From the NCBI RefSeq assembly GCF_036588685.1, contig NC_086386.1, positions 44,082,001 to 44,146,000 of the forward strand: a stretch of DNA of 64,000 bases. The letters are read 5' to 3'. The stretch is from Mytilus trossulus. Taxonomy: Eukaryota. The translations under genes were made by a program, and so were the position numbers. Under the pieces are notes generated by a model. It was not told the origin of the DNA. It made no database searches and saw nothing but the letters and a program-made list of their open reading frames with translations. Shown piece after piece: positions 20,834 to 62,333 of this stretch (its first letter is position 1; the number at the start of each line of letters is the position of its first letter).

Positions 20834-23800
20834 ATGGGATGCTGCTTTAGCAGCGAAGATGATAAAGACACACTGGTGAACATTCCCTCTTTTTTAAAAC
20901 TTTTAATAGATTCAAACTGAAAGCATTTATAAATGAACCCTCCCCCTCTTTATCTATAATACAGGTTTCTATACTAAATTTCGTTCATGTCAATATGTAT
21001 GTATGTTCTGTATCTTCCTTCTTTAGTAGGAGCACCACCATGGGTTATGGTGTAAAAAGGAAGACATTTAACACACTGTATTGGTACAGATTTAATGTGC
21101 GCATTTGCCTATCCAGTCTCCCAGCCTGGCCGTGACTGGTCTTACTACCAGAAAGTTAACCTTTCCCAAAACAACAAGTACAATATAATAAATAAAGAAT
21201 ACGAACACACCCACTCACCTGACTCGCTCATCCTCAAAAATATAAAAAATGCTTAATTTAGAAACACATTATATACAAAATAAAGGATAAGGTCACCCCG
21301 GATGCCGCACAAATGCCTAGACAACGAATGGGAAACTGGAGAGGACATACTTGGAATCCAAACCTATACCGCTAAATGCCCAGCTGTATTCCTGGTAGAG
21401 GAAAGCTGAAAATCCTATGAGAAAGGATCTCGGAAAGAAACTACTGATCCATTAGGAGAACAGCTAAAACCCTCAGACATCAAATAGATTGGTCTGATAG
21501 TTTCCCACATGGAAACTACTAATGGACCCCATCTGACAACATGTCTCAAACAAACCTGAAAATATCTGCAGAAACCTTTCTCAACAAAAAAATATAATCC
21601 AAATCAAAAAATATAGGATGTAAGGATAATAATATTTATCCATGAAATCAATTTGACAAAACAATTTCAATGATGTTGAAGGATTGTCTCTGCAAAAATT
21701 TTCACGTCTACTCTCATCGGCATGCTCGACTTGGTTTATACTATTTATCATTTGACTGTTGAGGTCTGGGATATATTTAACATGGTAGCTATTCAAGTTT
21801 CGCATAGCACTCAAAAATGATAAACCTTATTTTAACCTCAGATTGCTGCCAGTCGTATTTTAAGGTTGCATTCCGTGTGCAAGAAAATATGACATGTCAA
21901 TGTCTGTGACTTCAGATGTCCAACAATGATGTCATTTGATATATGACTTAACGCCATGATGTCCGTTACATTCGGGACATATTGAAGAAAAATATAACAT
22001 TGTTTAATCTTTGGTCTTTTATTTGAAAAAGATACAGCAATGATAAGAAGCTTGCATACATGTATGTTAAAACATGGACAGATGTGTCCCTTCGGCACAG
22101 TCTGTGTGGAAGCATGTGTTAAAAGGGTTAAAAGGTGGTAAAAACTAATTCAAGCTTATCATCTTCTCATCATTTCCTCCTTGGTTTTCATGCTGTTAAG
22201 AATGCATGAATTTGTGATGTCACAATTTCCCATGAATAAGGATGCACAATAAGAATTCATCATGTTCATATGTCGTATGAAAACATATGATCTGACCATT
22301 TATTTTTTTTTGTAATTTATTTTTATTTCATCTGAAAATACACCAAGTATATATTGTGATATATAGTTATATAGTTATTTCATAATACATATATTGATAT
22401 TAAATTTTCCAATAACAGTCTAAAATTAAAAAGTTAGTTATGCTATGCTAATTAGTCTAAATTTTCTACCAGATCATACACATCTTTTATCACTCTGGAT
22501 TAGAATACCGGAATATGTTGATAAGGTTAATGATGGCATCAGCCTTCTCCTCTAGCCACATGCATCACTCCCTATACAATGATGTTGAACATGAGAGGTA
22601 CCAGGAGAGGCCACCAGAGATCATTAACAAATAACATATTGGACAACATGTTGGACAGAGTCACATAAATAAATGTCAACCTAAGTCAAGGGGAGATAAT
22701 TCAAATACAATCAAACAAAAATTAGTATATCAATATATATAACATGTATAACAATAGCAATAAACATAGATAGTACTTTTAAGATGCACACAAATCACTG
22801 TCCAGTTGTGATGTGCATCAACATATAATTAATTCTACATGAAATATTATAAAGCCTTAAGTAAGTACAAAATAGAAAGATCTCTCCTCACATGTGAACT
22901 ATGTTTTTAATTAATTCCCATTTACAATCAAATTTCTCTCTTGCTCTAGGGGATCTGTAAAAGGAGGTAGATATTTTTTCTATTTGGTAGGAATTTTTAA
23001 TCATAGCTATGACACCCGTTAGAGTCGGTAATGAATTATTAAAGCGACATGTATAAATGTAATATTTAACCAGAATAGTGAATAAGTTTAGGGAAATATC
23101 CCAAGACTCTGACCCAAGAACAATGTTTTCCACATTAAGAATTAAAGTTATATTATTTTCAACTTGAAAAAGTGCTGCAATTTCTAACCACAAATTTCTA
23201 ACTAGGTTACATTCCCAGAATAGGTGACTTATAGTTTCTTTAGTTTCATTACAGAAACTACATAAATTAGTTTCTTTTAACCCATATTTCTGCAATAATG
23301 CATTTGTAGCGAGAGTTCTATGTAAAATCTTAAACTGGAACATACTAAATTTGTTGTTTTTAGTGCAACAAAAGGGTAAACTATAGATGAAATCCCAATT
23401 TTCTATATGAGTGCCTAGTTCCTTACACATTTTGTCTTCTTGTTTTGTAGGACGTTCTGTATACATTGACAAGAATTTTTTATAAAAGAACTGACATGAC
23501 TTTTTATTGTTTTTTATAAATTCAAATTTATCGTTAGATATGTGCATAATTTTCTCCGAAGTAGTGATTAAATTTTTCCAGTCTTTTGGTATCATATGCA
23601 GCAAAGAGTGGTATTCCAAGAAATTAATATTAAGATTATATTTTTCGCAGAATTCCTTTAAAGTAAAAAATTTGCTATTTTCATCAAGTAAATCACCTAT
23701 AAAGAAAACTCCTGATTCAACCCACCTCTGGTAAAAGATAGTTTTATTATTAATTTTCAAACTCTTGTTTAGCCATATGGATTGTTTCATGATCCCTTCA

Positions 23801-26800
23801 GCAGTGTCATTAGTGGCAGTGTTTAGGATATTCCAGTTTAGTAAAATATCTTTCCAGAAATTATTAAAATTTGAAGAAATCTTCTGGATACCATCAGGGG
23901 TCATCAACCATATTTTGTCTGCTCCTAATCTGTTGTATTGATCTATTAACAATGTTTTCCATGGGGATATATTCAAGGGGTCTAAAAGTTTATTTATCCA
24001 TGTCATCTTTAATGAATAACAAAAGGATCTTATATCTGGCATTTTCAACCCCCCATTTTCAAATAACCCTATCATAACTTTTCTTTTAATCTTGTCTGGT
24101 TTTCCTGACCACAAGAAACTAAAAAAAATATTTTGGATTTCTTTTATTTTATCATCCGGCGGGTTTGGCAAAACTGTCAATGATTGAATAAGAATAGGTA
24201 GAGCAAGTGATTTAATGACAGTGATCTTTCCCATATATGTTAAATCTCTATAAACCCAGGAATTTAGCAGGCTCTGTATTTTTTTAATTTTTTCTTCAAA
24301 ATTTACAAGCGTTTTATTTTCACTGAACAGATCAAATTTTATTCCTAAAAGTTTAAATTTTCCTGAATGATTCCAGTTTAAATTTCTTGTAGTTGTTAAT
24401 TTATCCCTTGAGTGAATCTTTGACCCAATCCATATGGCTTCAGTTTTATCAAAATTAGCCCTAAGTCCCGCACACTCAGAAAATTTTTCTAAAGTATATA
24501 AACATTTTTCTAAAGATTGCTCATCTTCATCTAATAAGAGACATGAGTCATCTGCATACTGGCTTAGTAGATACACAGAATCATTTATTTTCATACCATT
24601 TATATCTGGGTTATTTTTAAGTGCAGCACTCATAAGTTCTAAAGATAATATAAAGAGATATGGAGATAGAGGATCACCTTGTCTAACACCCCTCCCAATA
24701 TTAAAAAATTGAGAGCAATGTCCATTATTTATAATACAGCTCTGAGAATCTGAATATAAGGTCTTGACCCATCTACAAAAAATAGGACCAAATCCTAGAA
24801 AAGACAAAGCCAAGTCTATAAATGACCACTCAAGAGTATCAAAAGCTTTCTCAAAGTCTAATAAAAGTAAAAGACCTGGTAGATTATCATCTTCTGCCTT
24901 TTCCATAATGTCAAAAATAAGCCTGGTACATTCTCCAATATACCTACCCTTTATGAAACCTTGCTGTGTTTCACTAATTATATCCCCAAGAAAAGGTTTT
25001 ATTCTATTTGCTAATGCAGCTGATGCAATTTTTGTATCAACATTTAATAAAGTGATAGGTCTCCAGTTTTTTAATTGAAATTTTGATTTACCCTCTTTTG
25101 GAATGCATGTTATTACTCCCTGTTTCTGACTAACCGAAAAAGATCCAGTTTCTAAGCTATAATTAAAAGATTTTATAATAAACTCGTGGAGGTCTATCCA
25201 AAAAAATTTATAAAATTCTGTTGTAAATCCATCCATTCCTGGAGATTTACCATTTTTCATATTTTTCAATGTTTTTAAGCATTCATTAGTATTCAACTTA
25301 CCCTCTGCCTGTAACCTCTGTTCATCGGAAAGTTTGCGGATAAAAGGATTATTTTCATCAAAAAATAGATTTTTATGTTCTTGTTGAAGAATAGGATTTG
25401 TAGTGGAGTACAGTTTTTCATAAAATGATTTTTGTTCTTCTAAAATTTCACTTTGATTGAAAATTTCCTCCCCATTATTCTTAATTAATTTTGGAATTAT
25501 CTTTTCATTATAATTTCTTTTTTCAAGATTACAAAAATAGTTAGTACATTTTTCACCTTCTGCTACCCATCTTGCCTTTGCTCTTGCCATAATACCTGTT
25601 ACTATTTTCTCTCTGTGTTGAACAAGTTCATTTTCTAAAGTTTTAATTTCTGAATTTAATAATTCTGAGGGGTCCATTTCATAATTTTCAAGTAATTTAG
25701 CTAACTTGAGTTCTAAATCATTTTCAGTTTTTGTGTTTTTCTTTTTTATATAACTGGCATATGATATTGTTTTCCCTCTTATCATACATTTTAAGAGTTC
25801 CCAAAACAAGTGTGGGTTTACTGATAGTTCTGTTTCCAGGTCATTCCCAGGCAGAGAGTATTGATTTATAGTTTCCCTAATGCAATTTTTTATTTCAGTT
25901 ACATATACCATATCATGTAGTAAGCTATTATTAAACTTCCATGTGCCTTTACCTTTAATTTGATTGTAAAACTGTAAGGTCAGGTACACTGGAGAATGAT
26001 CAGACCTATAACTTATATCCATGTCTACATTTTTTACAAATGGTTCAAGATCAGATGAAATCAAAAAGTAATCCAAACGGCTTTGCTTAAGCCCAGGACC
26101 ACGCCATGTAAATCTTTTTGTATCTGGATTTAATGCTCTCCATATATCAACAAGGTCCAGGGACTCTATCATATCTAAAATTTTATCATGTGCTCTTATA
26201 TTGTTTTTTGCACTATAATTTGAGGTGTCCTTATCAAAGTCTTGCACCACATTCCAGTCTCCAGCCATAATTATGGAGCTATTTTTTATACCAGACACTA
26301 GACCTTTTATATTTTCAAAAAAAGTTGGAGAGTCCCCATTGGGACCATATATTGCAACAAGAGAAAGTCGATAATCTTGAATGGTCATATCTAGAATGAT
26401 AAAATTGCCTTCCTGATCCTTTTTTTCTTGGTGAATAGTAAATGTAAAACTATTTTTTAATAGAATTGCTACCCCTCTTGATCGGCTAGAACCAGAGCTA
26501 AAGAATGCCTTATACCCCCACTCATGTGCCCACTGCTTTTCTTTTTCTTTAGTACAATGTGTATCTGTTAATATAATTATATCATATCTTATCCTATATC
26601 TTGAAAAAAAATCTCTTCTCTTCACCTCCTCTGACAGACCCCTACAATTAAGAGATCCTATTTTTAAACTAGTCATTTCTCAACCAGTTCAATAGGTGTA
26701 ATATGTAACTCTATCCAACAGTCAAATGTTTTAAGTATAATATGATGGTATGTCATTCCTGATTTTTCAACATACTGATAAATAAACAATATCATACATT

Positions 26801-44661: not shown

Positions 44662-47600
44662 ATAACTCAAACGAAGGAAACAGTCAACAGCCTTAATTTT
44701 AACAGTGCACCGAAAGCATGTCCTGATAATATCGCCAAGTTTTGGAAAAATACCACCGGAGACCTGCAGGCCCTAGGAATGCATTTAGATGACACCATTA
44801 CAGTAACTTTTGGAATAAAGAAATCTCCAGTAATTGACACAAAAAAATCAAACCCTGTACAAGCAGCAGCCAATAATTTAGGTGGCGGTCACCATGCAGT
44901 GATTTTAAAACTAGAAGATAAAGACAAGTGCACCATTTTCTACATTTGAAAATGCCTGTACCAAGTCAGGAATATGACAGTTCTTGTCCATTCGTTTTTG
45001 ATGCGTTTTGTTTTTTGATTTTGCCATGTGATTATGGACTTTCCAAATTGATTTTCCTCTGAGTTCAGTATTTTTGTGATTTTACTTTTTAAACTTGAAC
45101 TTATAGTTGACGAAGACGTATGTTCTGTTAAGAAGAACTTCAAATGTCCGAATGAGGAATGTAACTTTCAAACCTCCTTTTTTTCAAAACTGGCCAACCA
45201 TCATTTTTTGGAACACGTCGGTCCAGAAGGAGAAAATATTCATTACGAGTGTTGTGGTCATGCATTTAGAAATTTTCAGTCTTATTGTCAGCATCAATAT
45301 ACAAATCATTCAACTAAAGGGGAAATACAATTAAAATTTTATCACATTCGGGAAAACAATTTTGAGAATTTTCTAGATCATGTTCAGTATTTTGGAGCAT
45401 ACAAGAAAAACACAACTTTAAGACAGGTGATGCAGTGTGCAGTTGACATTATTTTAAACTTTGGTAGATATTGGGTCTACTGCTGGAACTGTCAGGATTT
45501 TGCAACTTGGTTGCTTGTCCTAGTTGGAGTTCCTCTGAGAAATGTAGATCCTACATTAGCAGACAAACTTACAGGATCTGGTACAAAAATTAATGCAAGG
45601 TCAATACAGCAAAGTAAGGAATCGTATTTATAAAAAACACACAATGAACTTGAGATGCATGATTTAACAGACTGGAAAGGAGGTACTATTTGCGGTGAAA
45701 GCGGATGTAAATTTTTACCACCCATGTCACTGGAAGCATTAATACGGCATACAAAGGTTGCACACAATGGCGACAATATATCAGGTTTGCAAGCCGTATA
45801 ATACCATTTATTTTAGAACTATTAAGATAACAAAATTAAAATATATTCATTTAGAACTAAGTTTTTTTTATGCATAATGATACATTCTGTTGCAACGTTA
45901 TTCTTTTTTAAAATAGATCTTTAGAATTTCTTTTATTGTGCAAACATGAATAAAAATCCGCTAAATTGAATATAATTAAAAATACGCCACATTGTACAAA
46001 ATGTTTCAGGTTCATCAATGGATGATATGTTCGATGATTTCCTGTACACTGTGTCTGGGAGTCATATGGACATTAATTTAGATGTTAAATTAAAAAGAAA
46101 ATATTCTCTCTATCAGCTCCGTGGTACTGATATATGCTCCCATACGTCGATTGTATTTAGTCCATGGACTTCAAGCATTGAATCTAACATTCACAAATAC
46201 GATTTTTATCACACAGCAGAAATGGTAATAGATGGTACAAAACGCAAACCTCTGGTGAGACCAATAACTGAAGAACGCCATGTAGAAAACTTGAGGTACA
46301 TTTGTCATATAGATATTTCGACGGAAGAACTCTTAGACTATATGAATGTGATTTACAAAATAACATTTAAATATTCATCAGATGAAAGTTGTATGGCATT
46401 TTTTGTGAACTTGCTGGCTGCTTTGAGATACTTTCGTGAAAGGAAAATTGTAGTTTCATCAATTAACGAGGGTCTTTTGGCAGAATATGAAAATTACAGA
46501 AGACTGACAGACATTAAAAAACGACGAAATGCTTTATTAAAAATAATTGATTTTTTTTCACTGAATCAAGAGTTTCAAGGGGAGATACAAGTTTGGAAAT
46601 CTTCCTTTATTTACGATTTTCCGAAATGCAGCACAAAAACGTCGTCCGAAAAGTTAAAAGTATATGCAAATGCTATAAAACATTTAACTGCAACAAAATT
46701 CAATGAAATGCAAAGATCAGGTAGAGAAAAATGGGTAAGTCTTCATCCACTGATATCAATGTTTTTGATGTCATTCAATACGATAGGAGAGTTGTTTTTG
46801 TCCATGTATTTCGTTTTCACTGTACTTCTTATACTAAGCTTTGGATTACCGTTGCTACCAAAAAAGGATATGAATGGATTAAAATTATGTTTACAGTATA
46901 TAAGGCAACCTCACGAATGGCTAAACATACCTGTAATAGTACGTAATCTTATGTTTATAATATCACTAATAGTTCTAGCATACGAAGCTGTAAAAGATGA
47001 CTCAGTGCTAATGTCAGCTTTCATTATGCAGTACTTATGGATAATTTGCATTACATTAGAATAAGATGTATCTAAACGAGTTCTCACTATCCATGAAATG
47101 ACCCTTAAAAACGTCCCTAAGCGTATAGTTCAGTTGATACATCTTGGCATAAGGAACAACATTTTCAGATTCCCTGTTGCTGTTGTCTTAGTCATACCCT
47201 TATCACCTTGTCCGTATGTGATTTGCTGTCTTATTATTTTGATAATAATAATTTGTTCTTTAAGAAAAGTTGGTGAATATCTTCTCACTGGGGGACTCTC
47301 AATTAGTCTTTTTACATGTCAATATGTAAGAATAACAAATCATTGCATTGTATTCCTATATATGTTGGCAATCGCCAGCATTGGTATCCAAGGAGTCATT
47401 CGTATAACGGTTTTTCAATTCTCAAATTATCACTGTTTTGCTATTTATATATACACAAGTTTATCATGGTATAGACCACAGAAAAATAACTTAATCATCT
47501 GTAGAAATATGGCCACTACTTATAATACTGCTGTTGAAAGAGATATCATAAAATCACATGAAAAGAAATTGCTTAGTTCATGGTTATCAATTTTTCACTC

Positions 47601-47832
47601 ATCAGTATTATTTTCAATGCTCACGCTCCATGCGATTTGTTTAGTACCAGTTATATGTGTATGCATTTTTGATGTACATACTTGTTTATGTATCACATTT
47701 ATTACCCTTTATGTGCATTGTCTCTTGCTTTATTTCACTATTGACCTTCGATATGTTATCAAAGAGCTTTTCAGTGGTCCGTTAGAAAAGTACACACTTC
47801 TCAATCAAACAGATAAAACTAAAATTTCCTAA
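44662..47832 (+). pseudogene. Disrupted gene: two permuted papain-like (NlpC/P60; PPPDE/LRAT-like) domains + 3 C2H2 zinc fingers + multi-pass TM domain (~930 codons)
   Basis: One reading frame starts at the acceptor at 44662 (..GGGHHAVILKLE), crosses a SINE-like insert (44931-45090), continues as ORF 45076-45633 (two C2H2 fingers, YWVYCWNCQDFA), passes an in-frame TAA into a third finger (CGESGC..LIRHTKVAH), and splices through a phase-1 GT-AG intron (45785-46009). It then reads ORF 46018-47064, a second in-frame TAA, and ORF 47098-47832. Upstream exon(s) not identified. Confidence 0.75.
44931..45090 (+). mobile_element. 5'-truncated SINE-like repeat inserted in a coding exon
   Basis: Closely matches 57067-57227 (aaatgcctgtaccaagtcaggaatatgacagtt...cagtatttttgtgattttactttt). 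Confidence 0.88.
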
Positions 47833-51500: not shown

Positions 51501-53960
51501 AAGATAATGTTTTGAGCAATGTCAATGACATCGTCATACATGTCAGTACTTATAAACAAGAATGTATCTTCCGTTTAAATAAATAAATCAGAAAATTGAT
51601 AATAACCTCTGAATATTTCAATTCCAATCGTTTTCCAATATTAGTAAGACAGTTAATTTTTCCAACTCTATTAAGCAAACGACAAAATTGAAGGGCACAA
51701 CTACTAAATATGTTTGCTTCATTACTTATATTTCAAAAGACAGCTGGGCTTACAGAAATCTTGTTTTTTTACCGCAACGTTACATTTTCATGGAAAATCC
51801 ATCGATGTATTTGTTTGAACATTTATTAAAACGTATAAATAGCTAATGCTATAAATAAACCCATCATATATACGATGATTGAAAATTTGTATGTGCGCCA
51901 GACGCGCTTCGACTATAAAAGACTCTTACATATTGTTATGATACAATGTTTTAGTAATAAAACTATAACGTTCATAGACAGTATATCCCTTTTTATTAGT
52001 TATTAATATCATACAAACGAAAAACGAATACCTTTAAAGAGAAGTCTATATTTTACTATCTTTTCACTTTTTAAGGAAGAAAAATAGTATTAGTAAGGAA
52101 ATTTCTTACGTTGGTTAACAAACAATTATACATATGGATGACGATAGCCATTATAATTGTTAAATAAAGGTATATATAAAACAATATCTGTCAGGTTCTC
52201 AGCATCTAAATTACGTTGATGAAAAAAAACCCCAAACATTCCGCTCAATATTAAATGCATATATTTGCATAAATCACTACATGTGTTTATCAAAATCAAT
52301 GCAGCTATTGTAAATTTTATATAGATGAACATATAAAAATCATTGTGTGCCTTTATTTTTGCGATTATTCAAAAGAAACATAAACGATTGAGAAATATTA
52401 TACAACCAATATTTCAAACACAGACATAATTGCAAAGTCTGCTTATTCTACATATAATTTTGCATCTACAAAACAGCATACACATGTATGCAGATAATGT
52501 TCATTTATTTCCGATCGTATTGAGATAGCATTTAAATGATATAAATAATGACTCAACTACAAAACCCTTTCATATGACGTTGTCATATTTTTATCGTTGG
52601 GGAAGTGTGGTTTTATATGGTGAAAGTTGGTGTAGGTCAATACAGATTTGCGGAAGTTAGACATATATATGGTAAGAACGAACAGATTAAACAAAATTAG
52701 AATATTCTCTATTGATATCTCACCCTAATCCATATATTATGATTATTTTGGTGAAAACAACCCAAACTGAAAAACAAGGATGTTATATATATACCTGTTT
52801 TATCAATGTAGGTCGAATATAATCATATAAGTTTATTTCGATGGATTTGGATTTTCCTGCATGTTCATCCGCATTTTTTACATTTTTACCTATTATGTCT
52901 ATTTGGTTATTTTTCACACATCGTTGTCAATATAATGGAATTTCATGCGAATGTCATGCAAGTGAGAGTGATAGGTTTAGCTCGCTATAACACCAATTTT
53001 AATCCATCATTTTCAACATAAGAAAATTCCTGTTCTATGTCAGGAATATGGCTTTATCATTTATTATCTTTTGATATTTCCATTTGACTACGGACTTTCC
53101 GTTCTGAATATTTCTCGGAGCTCGGAATTTTTGTTATTTCACCTTGTAGTGCCAAATATTTAGACAACTTTTATCAGTATGTTTTACAAGAAGAGACGTA
53201 GGAATTCTAGAAACAAATAATGAACACTATCATAATTCCCTTGACGGTAAATTACGGTTCGAGCACAAGCATATCTACGTGTTTCGGAGCTTTCCGTTTT
53301 GAACTTTCCTCGGAGTTCAGTATTTTTGTGATTGTACTTTTTTCTATCTAAGGGAAGGTCAACTGTACATTAAATATGGATAGTCTACCTCCCTATTGAC
53401 AGAAACAAGTGCATGTTGGTACGAGTTGTCGACGGTGATGAATCTCAATGTATATTCATAATTGCTCTTTTGTCAAAATGTGAATTAAATTCAACTGTAT
53501 TGGTTTTGTTTGCACTTTTTTATAAACCATGAAATGTTTGCCACAGCAATCATTCGCAATCAATTTATAATACATGTAATTCAGATAAACTAATCAAATG
53601 GTAACTGAATGTGTCTATTTTAAAATGTTTTAGTTGAAACCTTATTCCTGATATTAAATTATTACACAATTTAGCATCTACACAGTTTCAATAGGGATAT
53701 GAAATTATAGTTGCAAGTACTGATAGTTCACCAGCATGCACAAATTGAACCGTTACTATTGATATAAACTCGACTACTGACTCATAGACTTTACATAAAA
53801 GTCATTAGAATTTTTTTGCAGTTTCTGAGTTATTGGTATAATAACCCAGTCGGTCCTAATTAACACACACTTAAACGCTTACTTCTAGTGTTTAATATCA
53901 TTTTGAAAAAGCAGAATCATTTCAGGTTGTGCCCATGTCATTCAATGAAAAGAGTTAAAT

Positions 53961-56900
53961 ATGAATATCTCAAAACCAACCAAGTTCCAGCACAACATAC
54001 ATGCTACCTTCGACCCACACATTGGAGATGTTGTTCTTTGTAAATCTAAATCCCTACTGACAGATGTCAAAGAAATGAACATCTCGGGACCAACTGAGTT
54101 TAAGCACAATATCCATGCAAAGTGTGATCCAAGAACTGGGAAGGTTGTTATGTTTTCACCGACAGTAGAATCATCGTAAGTAATATATAGTGGTTAAATT
54201 GTTCACTGATATACTGTTAAACTCGTCTAAAAGAGGGACGAAAGATACCAGAGGGACAGTCAAACTCATAAATCGAAAACAAACTGACAACGCCATGGCT
54301 AAAAATTAAAAGGACAAACAGATAAACAAAAGTACACATGACACAACATAGAAAACTAAAGAATAAACAACACGAACCCCACCAAAAACTAGGGGTGATC
54401 TCAGGTTCGAAGGGTAAGCAGTTTTTTAAGTGTTTAAGTAAAATGATATTTTCAAAACTGACATAAACGTAGCATCCAGATTTCAGTGTGCACATTCCTC
54501 GCTTAAATGTGTTTTAAAAAACTGTTCAGCACCAACCCAAAATATATAACTGTATAGTTTTAAACACTTATGGTCCTACATCCTCATATTTCAATTTAAT
54601 GTTGGCACTTTTTGAGCTAAAATTTGTGTCTTTTTTATTTTTGTTATTTGTTGGGTACTTCATAGTACCAATTTGATACATCAAGTCCCTTTCATCTTAT
54701 TTTAATCGTTTGATCTTAAGTTTTGTTTTAATACCACTGTTATATGTGAAAAGTGTAGCGCTCCAGACTTACTTAATCCTGCCACATTCTTCTTGTCTAT
54801 CAAAAGAAACAAAAGACTATCATTACACGAACACCCGAAAGACACAACTAATACAATGATTCGAATTAATCCTATTTAATACGTTTAGGTATATCCTGAC
54901 TTATTACATGTCTGAAATGTTGTAGGTTTCAACCAGTTTTACCTGCAAAAGACCCTCTTCTGTTTATCTTGACCTTTATCGTAAAACTTACACCCATATA
55001 ATTAAAACTAGCACGTACAAGATACCAACACGATGACCAATAACAGTAACAATTGGAAGCTAGTGTAAATAGGAAAGTTTTAGGTTGAACACTGTTAAAG
55101 CTGGGTGTTTTGTGAGCAACGTCCCTTATAGGTTTTGATGACGTATAATAATAGATATGCGGTGCACGTATGTACATGCTGTATGCATGGAATACTGTGA
55201 ATATGTTAACCTTAAACAATGTTGCTTATGCTATTTTTATAACATCTCTGTTTAAGGAAAAACCAGGATGACGAAAGTTATGACTGCAACAATTGCAATG
55301 AACTGTTTTACCAGTGGAAGAGGGATCAAGTCAAAATCAAGTACCTTTTATTCTCATATTTAAATTGTATCGTCAACTTTCTGTTTGATCTAGAATACAA
55401 CTTATTGTACGCAATATAGATATTTTAATAGCATCAAACTATAGCGTGTACGTCACAATTGTAGAGAGTTAGGATGCATTTTTATATTTAAAACAAACTA
55501 ACTATGTCATGGCTAAAAAACGAAAAACGATAAAAAGACAAACAACAGTACACAAAAACAACATAGAACAAAATGCTAAAGACTGAGCAGCACATACCCT
55601 GCAAAATAACTGTGGGGTGATATCAGATACTCCGAAAGGGTGCGTTGCTCCATATGCAAGACCCGTCTTATTACTCCTATTAAATAAACTCATCATAGAT
55701 ACAAGGATTAAATTTTATATTTAAGCCAGACTAGCGTTTAAGTTATATAAAGTGTGCCTGTTTCATACAATAGGGATTGGTAATTGTCTGATATATTATC
55801 CTATTAGTCAGACATCTCCAAATTTATAAACCCTCGGTCTTGTATATTTTCTAACCCTGAAACTTGACCGTATAAGAAAATTTGTAATAGAGACATATAT
55901 AAAACATTCAGTGAAAAATTAAAAAGAATTTAAACTTAATCAATACCAAAAACAAACTGATCTAAAACAAAACAACTACGAGAGATATCAGGTTCTCCTA
56001 AAGATCCACCTCAACAACGTGTTAATCATGTAAAATCTGATATTTAATGAAATCTGCAAATTTCTAGAGAAATACATAATTTCTCTATTTTTTGTATGTA
56101 TAGAAAAAAACACATCATAGATACCAGGATGGAAATTTTGCATTTGTGTCAGACGCGTGTTTCGTCTACAAAAGCATCATTAGAGACGCTCGAATCAAAC
56201 AAAGATAGAAATGCCAAATAAAGTGTGAAGTTGAAAAGCATTAAGGACCAAAAACTCCTTAAGTGCACAGCTAAGGTAGTCTATTCCTGAGGTAGAAAAG
56301 CCTTAGTATTCCAACAATTTACAGTTTTGGTTTTGTAAACAGTTAACTTATAATTATGACCATATCAATGATCATTCGTTTCAACACAGAAGTGCTTAAT
56401 CGTGTTTTAAAGCTTTATCGATTTCATATCATTCAAATTTTCTTCTTCTAGAGAATTGCAAGAAGAAAATCATTTTATGCTTGCAATGGCTGCTCGATTA
56501 TGCTTATTGGCAAGTAATACAGACGGATGCAGTGCATATGATAATGAATTTGGGTATTCTTCGTACGGAAACTTGAAAATGAGAGAATTTACAGAAAGCA
56601 TGAATTTCATTGCGCAGGCCCTAATAACTATGGAAAATGATAAGTAAGTATGACGTTAACTCAAACTCCGAAAACACTACGACATAAGTTACCGATCTCT
56701 TCAGGTTTGGAGCACTACATGTGATGTCTAGATTTAGCTATACCTTAAATCCTTTTTCGTTTGATCAGCTCTTCAACATTCGTATATTAAGTACTGATTG
56801 TTCAGATATTTCGAGCATCACTATAAAGACATTATTTGTCGAAACGCGCATCAGGTGTAGTAAAGTTAGCTGTTAATGTTAAACTATATCATGCCCTGCT

Positions 56901-59900
56901 GTTTATACATTTCGAATTATTGTTATACGATGATGACTGATGTACCCATATTTTGACTATTTTATTTATTGTGTCTGTTTATTTAACGCATCAATGTAAA
57001 TATAACAGAATTTGATGAGACTGTCATTAAAGTGAGAGGGTTAGCACTATAGAACCAGGTTTAATCCACCGTTTTCTACATATGAAAATGCCTGTACCAA
57101 GTCAGGAATATGACAGTTCTTGGCCACTCGTTTTTTATGCGTTTTGTTATTTGATTTTGCCATGTGATTATGGACTTTCCGAATTGATTTTCCTGTAAGT
57201 TCAGTATTTTTGTGATTTTACTTTTTATTCAAACTAGTAAGCCTATCTTTTAATTTCCAAAAAGACGTCTGATATCGCGATATCATTGCTGAAACAATTA
57301 ATACGTCTTTGTTGACAGTCGGAAACTATTTTCTGTTTGAATACAATTTTTATTACGTCCATATAAATGTTCTACAAGTCGACAAAGAACTAAAATATAT
57401 TAAGTCATTACTTTTTTTTTGTTAAAGAAAACAGCTTTATACGGTATAACTATTATTAGATTACTTACCAATTTAGTACATGTTATTTACATTCTTTAAC
57501 TATATTGAAAAGTCAATAAAAAAGAAAAAGAGAGGCCAAAGGTACCAAGGGAACATTCAAACGCATAAGTCAAAAATAAACTGAAGACGCCATCAAAATA
57601 AAAAGACCTTTTAGACAAACAACAGTTTAGAAAATACAACATAGGTATCTAAGATTGAGCGGCACGAACCCAATCAAAATCTGGGGGACATCTCATGTTC
57701 TCCGGGAGGATGAGCAGAAAAAGTGAGGGATACACACGAGACAACAGTTAATGAATTTGGAGGGAGTGAATCGAGCAAAATCGACACGAAGGCGTTTTAA
57801 TTTCTTTATTCTCCTTCAGTTAAGTTTCTGTCGGGGATGATCAAAGAGCTTTAAAATTTCAGTAGTTATGAAGTAAATTTACTATATTTACATGTAATTT
57901 ATAAAGGCGATGGGGTGATGAAACGATGCTTGAAGAAATAGATGAATTGAAGAACGAAATATCAACGCTTCAGAAACAATTAAAAGAATCTCGTCTTAGT
58001 AAAATAAAAGAAGTTAAAGCTACAATTGTCCAGGCACAGCACCAATTTCATTCCGCAAAACAAGATTTTGAACTAAGGTTAGTCTCGTTAAAAAAACATG
58101 TTCGTCATTACGTCATTAGATACATAAATTGATATGTGTTCAAAGTATTTTCACTTGTATTAGAGAAGATATTGAATAAGAACCATTTATTAATTTTATA
58201 ACGCAATTAAACTATGATAAAATTGAAAAAATGAAGTTTAAATTACGTTTTAGCAAACAGACTACTTTTATAAATATCTAGACTTGAAACACAGGCTGAG
58301 TAGGCATATCAGCAAGTAGATACACACTAAATGCACTTCCTGTATATATATATGTGTGTTTATGCAGGGTTGGTGCTTTATAGTTTCATGCACTCTGTGA
58401 GTACAATTGTCATATGTATGAACTATTCCACGGAAAACTTTAGATTTAGCAATTCGAACGCCAAACTCAAGCTTTGAGTGAACGAATGTTTTGCCTTATG
58501 TGTTGCTCATTGACGTACAAATCCGGTATAATGACTCATTTGGTTCTTACAATCGATGAAAAGAGAACGGGATTGTTGTTACAACTGAAACATATCCGTG
58601 ATCATCTGTGATACAGGCATAATATAATGGTCAAGCAACGAATGAAAACGTCAGTTAGATTAGATTTTTAGATTTTAACAGCCGTCCTTATTCTGTCGAC
58701 ACACCCCAGTCTCTCACTTTTGAAATTCATTAGTTTTATTCGGTCTTTCTAACTTGATTGTTTTGTATCTTGATCATGGATTTATGAGATTTGAACACTG
58801 GTCAACTACTTGTGTCTCTCCATAGCTCTGTTTGATGGATAGTTTTGTCTACACACAAATGATTAAAATTTGAACCTAAAGTTCAGTTCATATGTAACTA
58901 CTGCAAATGTATACAACAGTAAGTTTGTTTTACAATATTGACTTAATTGAGAATTCTTAAATCTAAACGAAAACTTTACATGTTCGTTTTGTCAGGAAAA
59001 TGACAGTTTGATAAGTGACTTTCGGTTTTGAATTTTCCATAGAGTTTGGTAATTTTGTCAATTTACTTTTGTACAATAAGTCATATTTGAATATTCTATT
59101 AAAGAGTTGAGAAAACAGAAAAGGAATTATACATGCTGAAATCACATCTCATTGATCTTCAGGCTGAGAACGAAAGTCTGCGGCAGAAAATGAGGAATGC
59201 AAAACTTCTTTTTACAGAATGGCACTCCACAAGCTCAAGGTACACACACGTTATATTTTGTTTTAGTTCGCATTGGTAAGCCAATGTATGCCCATTTTGT
59301 TTTCTGGAGGTAAATATGCCGTATGACATGCATCCCTTTTCTTGATACTGCCGTTCCTAATGTTCTCTATGATAAAATCGGACTTAAATCAATTTCATGT
59401 TTGAAACTGATGTCACATTATAGTGATTGCTATTGCAATGAAGCCCAGATTATAACGGCACGCTCTTTAGGTGAATCAACAATACCATGCTTTACTTTAC
59501 TTTATGTAATTCCGAATTTAAGTTTGAAATTTTACCTTGACAAGTTCCAATCGAAAAAATTCTACAAAGCATTTATTCGGAGATATACTTAGTATAAATA
59601 AGAAACGGTAGTCGAATACAAACTGATAAAACCATGAACAAACAAAGCAGTAAGAAAAAAGCCAACAGTTTTAAAAAAACACTTTAAAGAAGACTTAAGA
59701 CTGAGAAACATAAACCATCGCAACTTGGAGTATTCAATACTTTAAACTGAATAAAAGGACAAATACAAGTGTCATTTCATTAAGTATAAAACCGTATATC
59801 GAAATGGTTAACTATTTGCATAATCTTAAAAAAGAGATATTTATACAGTTTTATAAGTACCAATATATGTATTTTTTATGATTTTTTCAGGGTATCTTCT

Positions 59901-62333
59901 GCCTTGAATCAAGACATGTCTGTTTTTGAGTTGAAGAAAGAAAATGAGCTACTGAAAAAAGATCTGCAACAGATTGATAGTGACAGAAACCGTTTGAAAG
60001 AGGAAGTAACGACAACCATGCATCAGCTGTTGAGGACAAGTAATAGCTCTCCAAGGTTAAATTACAGTTCTACATACTATATAAAAATAATACTAGCTCA
60101 CACTTGAATATGATAAATAAACGTAGAAACTATTAATCCTACAATATTTGTGCATGGAAAACTGTGTGCATACTTGACTTCGTGTGCTTAGAGTTAATTT
60201 GAATCAGATAAAATCTCAAGCTTTTCACTATTGTGAAAACAAATATTCAAACTTGCATTGGGTATCAACGTTTTTTCTTCTTCTAAACCATTTACCAAAA
60301 ACATATTAATTTTAAAGTGTTTTGAAATTTAGGCCTACAGTTGGAGACATTTTTGATTCAGAGGACAATGACAGAAATGGAAATGTAGATTGCAGGAATC
60401 AGAACACGTACGTAATATATATGAGCTATAATACAAATAACAATATGAACATATAGAATACAAATCAACAAAACTTCAAATCAGAAACAAATGTAATGAA
60501 AACTAGTTATTTATGTGTGAACTTGCAAATGAGTAAAGGGAATTATATGTGTTTTTTTGTTTTTGTTTATTTCTTGATACATTTGTAGGCACTATCTGTT
60601 TGCAATATTCCCCAAATAAACAAAGAATTGAGATTTACAAAGAAGAAAAATTACTGAATAAATTCAAGAAAGCGTAAAAAGATGTATCTAAAAAATTAAT
60701 AGAGTTACAGAGACAACTAATAAACGTTATTAAAAACTAAGTCATTGGTGTTACGTTGATAATATTACTTAAACAACACCAATAAAGAGTAAAATAGCAA
60801 GACTACAGAACTCCAAAGGAAATTGAAAATTCAAGTGCTCAAACATGATAGAAAATAAAACCAAAGACATCTACCTCATAAATTATCGACCCATCTCACA
60901 GTTAAAATTGCGTTATAATTCATCATAGTTTTCATGCATATCATTAAGTACCTTGTCAGGAATATGACAGTTGTTACCCATTCGTTTGATGTGTTTGAGC
61001 TTTTAATTTTGCCATTTGATTAGGGAATTCCGTTGGGTGTTCAGTATTTTTGTGATTTTACATTTTAGTACATCAGACGCGCATTTTTTTATCAGGTGTT
61101 CATCAGTTGCGCTCGATTAACATCCGAAAAATATGCTATATATCATTTGTGTAAATCGGTGATCATAATAAAATATGTTGTCTGGCTTTTAATTTTACAC
61201 TGAAATCATGCAGTGACATATGTTTATATATTTACCACTGGAATATATTGCTCATGGTATATTTTACATAGTTTCAGGATTAAAAAAAATTACTTCATCA
61301 ATGATTTATTAGTTTGATGATGTTTATGATTATATTAGAGTGAATAACTAATCTGTCACGTGTGAGTGATACTAAATCATATGATATCGACATATTTTCC
61401 AAAAGTCACTCGACGGGTGTCCCATTTTGAGCAAAATGAGTTTATCTCTACGGACATTACTCTTTGAATTTGGTGGTGTTCATGTTGCTCCTTTTGTAGG
61501 TTGTGTTCTGTATACTGTTTACATGGTATTTTCAGTTCGTTTTCGTCTGTTTGATTGATCCTTTGATATTGTTCACCTCTCTGTTATTATGTGTTGATGC
61601 ATTAGTGAAACAAAATTTAACTGAATCTGTTTTTTTCTTTTTATCTGTAAAGTTCTTTAGAGAATGAACAACAAAATATTTTAAAAGTCATGTTCAGTCA
61701 TTCAGGGGATTGTCAGATTATTTCACTACGACAAATTCAGTATCATTTGGACTTGCAGTCTTTCAACATATGATAGGTCTTTGTTTAAATGTTTTAGTAG
61801 CTGTTGTTTAACTGTAACATGCAACTACATATAGAATTGTTTGAGGAGCTAGTTTTTGATTGACTACGGGTCAAATGTACTGAGTTTATAGCAGGCAAAT
61901 ATCTTCAGAAATACCTTATGTTCCTAATCAAACTGGATAGGTTCCCACTTTTCAGATGATGTCAAACTGACAGGATAAGTCCAAAATGTCCCCATTTTAA
62001 TTCTGTCATCACATGATTCTACATAAACTTTGATATAGTTCTCAAATTAAAAATACAGAGGCACTGTATTCAGTACAGTCAGATGTACAGTGATAGTTTT
62101 GGATCTTTAGTCTCGATGTTTTTATTTTAATTTCGTAATTATGTTAATGGTATTAAGCTGCATAAACTTTCGTCTCTTGCACACTGAAATAAGCAATTAA
62201 TGCTTTATATTTCAGCACATCTTCTGGAAAACAAGTAAGCTATACCATAACAGCAGGCGCAGTAAATTTTATCGACAAATCAAGTGTGAAATATGATCAT
62301 AGAGGAGGGGAGATAAGCGAAACAATTATTTGA
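53961..62333 (+). CDS. Uncharacterised tandem-CRIB / coiled-coil protein (7 coding exons, 356 aa)
   Basis: Exons 53961-54175 (ISKPTKFQHNIH and ISGPTEFKHNIH), 56452-56643, 57907-58077, 59105-59239, 59891-60055, 60333-60407, 62216-62333. All introns are GT-AG and phase 2. Total 1071 nt with no internal stop. Heptad-rich exons 3-5. The start codon is uncertain. Confidence 0.8.
56108..56397 (-). mobile_element. Retrozyme-like repeat with a degenerate minimal type I hammerhead ribozyme
   Basis: Reverse complement of 56145-56193 is tcgagcgtct-CTAATGA-tgcttttgtagac-GAAA-cacgcgtc-tgacac. Homologous to 42660-42940. Confidence 0.65.
56930..57227 (+). mobile_element. SINE-like dispersed repeat (longer copy)
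   Basis: Same family as 44931-45090, 52880-53140, 58990-59070, 60950-61065 and (inverted) ~950-1145. Copies share the 3' end and vary at the 5' end. Confidence 0.75.

Follow-up and report, generated by a model that had tools for sequence, protein, structure and literature searches.

Does a mussel protein with two CRIB motifs and no kinase domain represent a new kind of effector for the GTPases Cdc42 and Rac? The question is raised by a gene in a stretch of 64,000 nucleotides from Mytilus trossulus (contig NC_086386.1, positions 44,082,001 to 44,146,000), hereafter referred to as the window, in which all positions are given unless another contig is named. The gene is spliced, lies on the forward strand at 52588..62333 (from the first base of its 5' exon covered by contigs to the stop codon) and encodes a product of 384 amino acids, which matches the RefSeq protein XP_063413293.1 (P0001; uncharacterised LOC134695807 of M. 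trossulus) at 384/384 residues. A first-pass annotation had proposed that the protein is a bivalent GTPase-binding oligomeric adaptor. The gene structure, its splicing, the two CRIB motifs, selective conservation and the lack of any known catalytic or actin-nucleating domain are observed, and the proposal is partly supported; bivalency and oligomerisation are steps that we infer. On balance, we lean modestly towards a bivalent, probably dimeric, lineage-restricted adaptor that would gather active Cdc42/Rac at membranes.

The two CRIB motifs were found at the spacing noted before, within one exon: ISKPTKFQHNIH begins at 53967, and ISGPTEFKHNIH follows at 54081, 114 nt or 38 codons further downstream. 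When all six frames of the window are read, the pattern IS-x-P-x(2,4)-F-x-H-x-x-H occurs twice, and 40 shuffles together did not yield a single match. Repeat 1 comprises a CRIB and a PAK-type β-hairpin (residues 3-26; 53967..54038, forward strand) and scores 23.2 bits against the Pfam family PBD (PF00786), while repeat 2, which has the same composition (residues 41-65; 54081..54155, forward strand), reaches 22.7 bits; each repeat alone passes the cut-off of 21.3 bits, both together yield an E-value of 1.2e-10, and the whole protein of 384 amino acids scores 35.8 bits. The profile is aligned at positions 2-26 of 59 only, and the PAK inhibitory helix, which follows the hairpin, was not found. 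The PAK-like (F/C)DPxxG sequence noticed after each CRIB corresponds to a hairpin in both structure models, which, for repeat 1, place strands at residues 15-18 and 23-26 of the protein, with a predicted local distance difference test (pLDDT) below 50. The repeats are identical at 17/25 residues and 52/75 bases and share no similarity upstream, which indicates that the duplication is old and confined to the CRIB and its hairpin. With respect to the CRIB consensus I-S-x-P-x(2,4)-F-x-H-x-x-H-V-G, each repeat keeps six of eight positions (I-S-P-F-H-H). The best PDB sequence match of repeat 2 is the CRIB of PAK6 (2odb_B, E 0.004), with CRIB peptides of PAK4 and PAK1 also at the top, and among the CRIBs of the mussel genome the PAK1-like and PAK3-like ones score highest against the repeats, whereas the SPEC-like and CEP-like ones score low. 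The CRIB exons of the PAK1-like and WASP-like genes terminate directly behind the hairpin, and the two repeats stop at the corresponding point, ahead of the PAK inhibitory helix.

Whether the CRIB exon is spliced to the coiled-coil exons was addressed with transcript contigs from two sets of four runs (8 of the 24 runs listed; the kind of run was guessed, and none is recorded as RNA). Contigs from four runs of four studies back the exon joints: five of the eight joints are present in 4/4 runs, two in 3/4 and one in 2/4, and a single contig of 1199 nt spans the CRIB exon, the helical exon and coiled-coil exons, as the first-pass annotation had assumed. Seven of the eight joints are of the GT..AG type; the eighth (56640 to 57907) leaves three letters between its two sides, which fits a donor at 56643. 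The earlier gene model of seven exons and six introns was right about the phase, which is 2 throughout, and wrong about the count: after correction, there are eight coding exons and seven coding introns, all of phase 2, the coding exon at 60333-60407 and a 5' non-coding exon having been missed. Seven introns of the same phase are expected by chance in about 0.1 to 0.5% of cases (for assumed phase frequencies), and their uniformity fits growth of the gene by symmetric exons. Such a structure would allow every internal exon to be skipped in frame, as had been suggested. This seems possible, as exon 5, with its 57 residues, is precisely what is missing from one gene model of M. galloprovincialis (P0002); no skipping joint was seen, however, among the joints listed from the transcript contigs.

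All exons lie on the forward strand. Exon 2 (53926..54175, transcript contigs) contains 35 nt of 5' untranslated region (UTR), an in-frame TGA at 53946-53948, the ATG at 53961 and both CRIB repeats. Exon 3 (55257..55340, joints in 4/4 runs) encodes an acidic patch, a CxxC motif (C82 and C85; 55285-55296) and the beginning of a conserved helix, and exon 4 (56452..56643; contigs, Pfam scan and structure model) a helical segment of no known family. Exons 5 (57907..58077), 6 (59105..59239) and 7 (59891..60055) encode the predicted coiled coil, as judged from contigs and structure model; exon 5 is the one missing in P0002. Exon 8 (60333..60407) contributes a poorly conserved linker of 25 residues in 75 nt; its joints were found in 4/4 runs (60053/5 to 60331/3) and 3/4 runs (60407 to 62216), and it is present in P0001. 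The coding part of exon 9 (62216..62333, contigs) runs to the stop codon and carries a tail motif, I-T-A-x-x-V-x-x-I-[DE]-K-S, at 62247-62288, and the 3' UTR reaches at least 62605.

Upstream of the CRIB exon lies the 5' non-coding exon (52588..52671, forward strand). It is represented by a contig piece covering 52588-52670 and linked by a GT..AG joint (52670/1 to 53925/6), which was found in 4/4 runs of the first set and 2/4 of the second. Its true start is not fixed and lies at about 52580 or earlier. An N-terminal extension of the protein was considered, as the frame of this exon is in line with the CRIBs, and rejected: the frame is closed by the TGA at 53946-53948, 15 nt before the ATG, and those contigs of the second set of four runs that span this TGA show it unaltered. 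Three runs have a 1-nt gap at 52629/30 within the exon. The region is read as 5' UTR with upstream open reading frames (ORFs). Short upstream ORFs are present in at least two frames of the 5' UTR (52617-53960, forward strand), one of them ending 15 nt before the ATG, and translational control by these ORFs is possible.

In accordance with the first-pass annotation, neither a kinase nor a WH1 or WH2 domain is among the 16 rows at E<=10 obtained in a Pfam scan of the whole protein. The Borg family is not among them either; the rows consist of PBD and sub-threshold coiled-coil noise only. Two AlphaFold2 models agree with each other though poor overall (predicted template modelling score, pTM, 0.24): they show ends of low confidence, a hairpin after each CRIB, helices of medium confidence around residues 85-120 and 140-165, and a confidently predicted helix that begins at 170 and ends near 316-318 (in the first model it spans 170-318, with pLDDT blocks of 77-93). 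A continuous confident helix thus covers the coiled-coil region in these monomer models, in which chains were modelled singly. Foldseek found no match in the PDB at E<=0.001 with this low-confidence model (pTM 0.24) as query, the ESM Atlas returned no match at 0.9 or more, and the matches of a family-profile search of PDB sequences were limited to the CRIB of PAK6 (E 0.004) and coiled coils of a generic kind.

Which parts of the protein are under constraint can be seen from its most distant full-length relative, P0017, which is 46-48% identical overall. Identity amounts to 17/25 residues in CRIB1, 19/25 in CRIB2, 32/41 in the CxxC-helix block (residues 77-117) and 12/18 in the core of the tail (residues 356-373), compared with 6/13, 3/13, 11/47 and 2/26 in the linkers, the last of which is exon 8. 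Judged from these alignments, both CRIBs, the CxxC-helix block and the unclassified C-terminal motif are selectively conserved. Residues I3, S4, P6, H11, H14, I41, P44, H49 and H52 are invariant in 9/9 aligned sequences. Within the CRIB segments of the transcript contigs, 20 letter differences were found, 15 of which are synonymous when taken singly, and none of the remaining five affects a core I, S, P, F, H or H.

The homologue survey that the first-pass annotation had suggested revealed full-length relatives in five Mytilus species, the only ones among those with a species assigned; the others come from further assemblies. UniRef labels close relatives of the product 'CRIB domain-containing protein'. 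A profile search of 1.84 billion representatives yielded ten proteins: the query, P0017, three fragments covering coiled-coil exons, the tandem-CRIB fragments P0019, P0022 and P0023, the CRIB-less P0021 and the rotifer protein P0025. Both CRIB repeats are present in P0017, P0019 and P0022. P0021 is closely related to P0027; the first 100 residues of either protein contain no pair of histidines resembling that of a CRIB (these are protein records, which might be truncated), and both share residues 204-374, including the coiled coil and the tail motif, at 33% identity. In 5000 shuffles, the tail match to P0021 was equalled twice. The M. galloprovincialis protein P0003 clusters with the M. californianus protein at 98/100, a hint at a second copy or a deep allele. 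Searches for paralogues in the own genome matched only the double-CRIB locus and the PAK3-like CRIB, and the gene is single-copy. The protein family seems to be restricted to mussels and a few further relatives, and its repeat probably originated when a PAK-type CRIB-hairpin module was captured and duplicated ahead of an older coiled-coil protein.

Could the protein nevertheless belong to a known effector family? A PBD scan of the genome revealed CRIBs at separate loci, which we take, from their motifs, to be PAK1-, PAK3-, PAK4-, WASP-, MRCK-, SPEC- and CEP-like; the WASP-like CRIB is located on contig C1 and the MRCK-like CRIB on contig C3. The double-CRIB gene is therefore not an orthologue of these families. 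Two of these loci have peculiarities of their own. The intron after the CRIB exon of the PAK1-like gene contains seven further copies of the 3' end of this exon (L030, G000:C3:89248367-89248950), which carry stops, the first four at a period of 65 bp, and which produce many PBD matches though they are non-coding; this array at 89.248 Mb was considered as a paralogue and rejected as a non-coding repeat of the 65-bp type. The MRCK-like locus (L169, G000:C3:13279158 and 13280559, reverse strand) has two CRIB-coding segments 1.4 kb apart, which are possibly alternative exons.

Like the PAK kinases, the mussel protein has a CRIB followed by an [FC]-D-P-x-x-G hairpin; unlike them, it possesses two CRIBs, lacks the V-G, the inhibitory helix and the STE20 kinase, and its transcript ends with a stop codon and a 3' UTR. 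It differs from WASP and N-WASP in that no Pfam match was obtained for WH1, a proline-rich region or WH2/VCA, and from MRCK, ACK and MLK in that the Pfam scan revealed no kinase with accessory domains. The kinase-less CRIB proteins CEP/Borg, SPEC, yeast Gic1/Gic2 and plant RIC are regarded as adaptors in a review (PMC8847673). They likewise have no kinase beside the CRIB; however, they carry one CRIB, according to the family descriptions of the review, whereas the mussel protein has two within 384 amino acids and gives no Borg match.

That effectors carry a single CRIB, as the first-pass annotation had it, holds for the classic families and is not universal. The Brachionus plicatilis protein RNA24270.1 (P0025) also has two CRIBs, 32 residues apart; its model stops after the second one, and it aligns with mussel residues 1-61 only. 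Its N-terminus presumably is PAK-like, to judge from a proline-rich motif, and its CRIB pair is probably an independent duplication. PLD2 is reportedly another chain with two CRIBs. Coronin 7 has been described as a further one (PMC4585930), and Dictyostelium GnrC (Q551I6) is listed with two consecutive N-terminal CRIB domains and no assigned GTPase partner (PMC8847673). GnrC, however, is a gelsolin-related actin-binding protein without the coiled-coil architecture, and no sequence match connects it to the mussel protein. The tandem layout is shared by the engineered 2xwCRIB sensors, in which it raises avidity (PMC12048676, PMC10234108) and which, unlike the natural and shorter mussel unit on its coiled coil, are synthetic and consist of whole GTPase-binding domains (GBDs) of WASP joined by a linker of 19 residues. 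Tandem CRIBs are thus rare, not unique. A literature search with most subscription journals and supplements outside its coverage found no paper on the LOC134695807 gene or on a natural tandem-CRIB coiled-coil adaptor. In terms of predicted domains, the architecture matches no described effector family. The claim of a novel effector stands insofar as no classic effector is an orthologue and those effectors have separate loci, and has to be restricted insofar as the protein already has a RefSeq and UniRef record and tandem CRIBs have precedents.

Do the repeats bind a GTPase? In ACK, the energy of binding comes mostly from an isoleucine, a proline, a phenylalanine and two histidines (PMC5500802), and according to a review, one or two departures from the CRIB consensus are still compatible with binding (PMC8847673). 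Tandem arrangements have been studied with engineered proteins: 2xCRIB enriches Cdc42 at activity zones and a single CRIB does not (PMC12048676), and two WASP CRIBs cloned in direct tandem pre-localise to the plasma membrane without a stimulus (PMC10234108). A complex was modelled from residues 1-70, a Cdc42 stand-in in two copies (which matches the mussel exon at 98% identity over 60 residues), GTP and Mg; it scored 0.53, compared with 0.00 for the best of three controls, with a contact agreement of at least 71% and a partner pLDDT of at least 59; the score applies to the whole peptide and does not resolve the single repeats. The mark used for such models is reached by 51/78 solved complexes and 2/108 mismatches. 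The model gives weak support to Cdc42 binding by residues 1-70, and its score may reflect memory, because structures of PAK-Cdc42 complexes are already solved. The GTPase binding proposed by the first-pass annotation is thus suggested by motif, conservation and, weakly, this model (0.53 vs 0.00).

From the retained I-S-P-F-H-H residues, the PAK-like scores and the tandem-CRIB precedents, a bivalent adaptor is favoured. Each conserved CRIB-plus-hairpin repeat would likely bind one GTP-loaded Cdc42 or Rac and might fold upon binding, forming an intermolecular β-strand and a hairpin as in PAK. Because it lacks the V-G and the PAK helix, a single site would be weak, for which duplication could compensate through avidity. 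Dimerisation of the coiled coil would bring together up to four GTPase sites, which would allow the adaptor to dock on and hold patches of active GTPase at membranes, and the output might be provided by the CxxC-helix block and the tail motif, both of which are conserved.

Several observations weigh against this model. The V-G of the consensus is replaced by A-T and A-K in the two repeats, whereas the G is kept in 7/7 classic CRIBs read from the genome, and a GBD of ACK cut just after the CRIB was reported to bind at only 4.8 uM (PMC5500802). The linker between the repeats is only about 13-14 residues long. The complex score of 0.53 falls into a range in which most predictions are wrong, except where a complex was probable from the start (only 5/78 solved complexes reach the mark with a score at or below 0.60, as do all 4 passing mismatches of 180), and the GTPase used is a stand-in. 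Furthermore, the M. californianus isoform P0005 and the M. edulis model P0004 begin downstream of CRIB1, and one-CRIB forms of the protein may exist.

Instead of promoting an output, the protein might act as a buffer or competitive inhibitor, which binds avidly and masks active Cdc42/Rac from PAK, WASP and MRCK; the coiled coil would then be needed for location or avidity only. The Pfam scan, which revealed no catalytic or actin-binding domain, agrees with this idea, as does the unstimulated membrane localisation of the tandem WASP CRIBs (PMC10234108), i.e. the behaviour of a sticky unit. However, the CxxC-helix block (32/41) and the tail (12/18) are conserved as much as the CRIBs, and the tail is kept in CRIB-less relatives; both observations point to a positive output, and a mere buffer appears rather unlikely. 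Slightly less probable still, in our view, are CRIBs that have diverged to become effectively monovalent or to prefer an expanded mussel Rac-like paralogue over Cdc42. Such a shift would fit the loss of V-G in both repeats, the one-CRIB gene models (P0004 and P0005) and a cluster of at least five near-identical Rac-like first exons (L061-L065) at G000:C11:13.34-13.76 Mb, which suggests a local expansion of Rac-like GTPases. However, the two repeats are equally conserved, and neither is missing from P0017, P0019 or P0022.

The conserved tail has led to a third idea, an immune guard, in which the CRIB pair would sense abnormal activation of Cdc42/Rac, the coiled coil would cluster the protein and the tail would polymerise as a RHIM-like amyloid seed. 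Indeed, the tail is short, β-prone, conserved and placed behind a disordered linker, and by eye it can be set in register with a mussel RHIM. This RHIM exon (L003, G000:C12:11337223-11337279) scores 20.5 bits alone, above the Pfam cut-off. Divergent RHIMs of invertebrates reside in immune proteins, where profile searches readily overlook them (PMC4262963), and hosts are reported to monitor Rho GTPase activity (PMC8084149). In contrast to the mussel control, however, none of three tail peptides matched the Pfam RHIM family (PF12721) at E<=10. The core of the tail reads VNFI, VNII or VYMI, with an isoleucine at the position of the glycine in the RHIM tetrad (V/I)-Q-(V/I/L/C)-G (PMC9444067), and ungapped scores of the tail against the mussel RHIM were equalled by 426 to 1800 of 2000 shuffles. 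The tail was therefore rejected as a member of the RHIM family on account of the missing profile match, the deviating core tetrad and the shuffle scores; a RHIM-like function, which we consider a long shot, is retained because divergent invertebrate RHIMs are hard to detect. Equally far from probable is a new sensor of Rho-GTPase activity, in which a tandem-CRIB avidity module sits on a coiled-coil rod, the tail is an amyloid-type motif not described so far, and clustered or pathogen-forced activation of Cdc42/Rac nucleates a signalling polymer. That the gene is merely part of a known effector (MRCK, PAK or CEP/Borg), or an orthologue that has diverged from one, is hardly credible and largely refuted in spite of its PAK-like repeats and of MRCK, in which coiled coils and a CRIB likewise occur together: the transcript is complete by itself, with a 5' UTR that contains an in-frame stop, a stop codon and a 3' UTR, no ORF of at least 100 amino acids is present in the 10 kb following the window end, PAK1-, PAK3-, PAK4-, WASP-, MRCK-, SPEC- and CEP-like CRIBs are encoded at other loci, and the profile search of 1.84 billion representatives found no known effector except the rotifer PAK-like fragment, which matches by its CRIB pair.

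If the bivalent adaptor is correct, the mussel protein would be a natural, conserved counterpart of the engineered tandem-CRIB design, for which valency was reported to be enough in vitro to enrich active Cdc42 at membranes (PMC12048676), and would thus make it possible to test directly if avidity through tandem CRIBs is exploited in evolution. The few animal CRIB effectors would be joined by a further family, which illustrates how a coiled-coil protein can acquire a signalling input through the capture of a module, and residues 1-70 would be a compact candidate biosensor. The reach of these findings is limited, as the family is apparently confined to mussels and a few relatives.

The window contains further coding sequences. 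Two long in-frame ORFs of 362 and 255 amino acids are located at 45976-47829 on the forward strand; they have no Pfam match, and their second half is hydrophobic. They are split by a TAA at 47062, at the first base of which contigs from 3/4 runs read G, and probably represent a single multi-pass membrane gene with a premature stop in the assembled copy. ORFs of 95 and 193 amino acids are found at 44662-45630 on the forward strand, where 44931 and 45087 are connected in one contig, skipping a repeat of 155 bp; the longer one has a weak LRAT-like match below the cut-off (PF04970, E 0.0074). On the reverse strand, an uninterrupted ORF of 1263 amino acids at 22891-26679 presumably encodes the endonuclease/reverse transcriptase of a long interspersed nuclear element. 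Elsewhere in the genome, contigs C1, C2, C7 and C13 (G000, L034-L058) harbour many intronless Ras-like genes with long C-terminal extensions, which we take to resemble the RASD/Rhes type.

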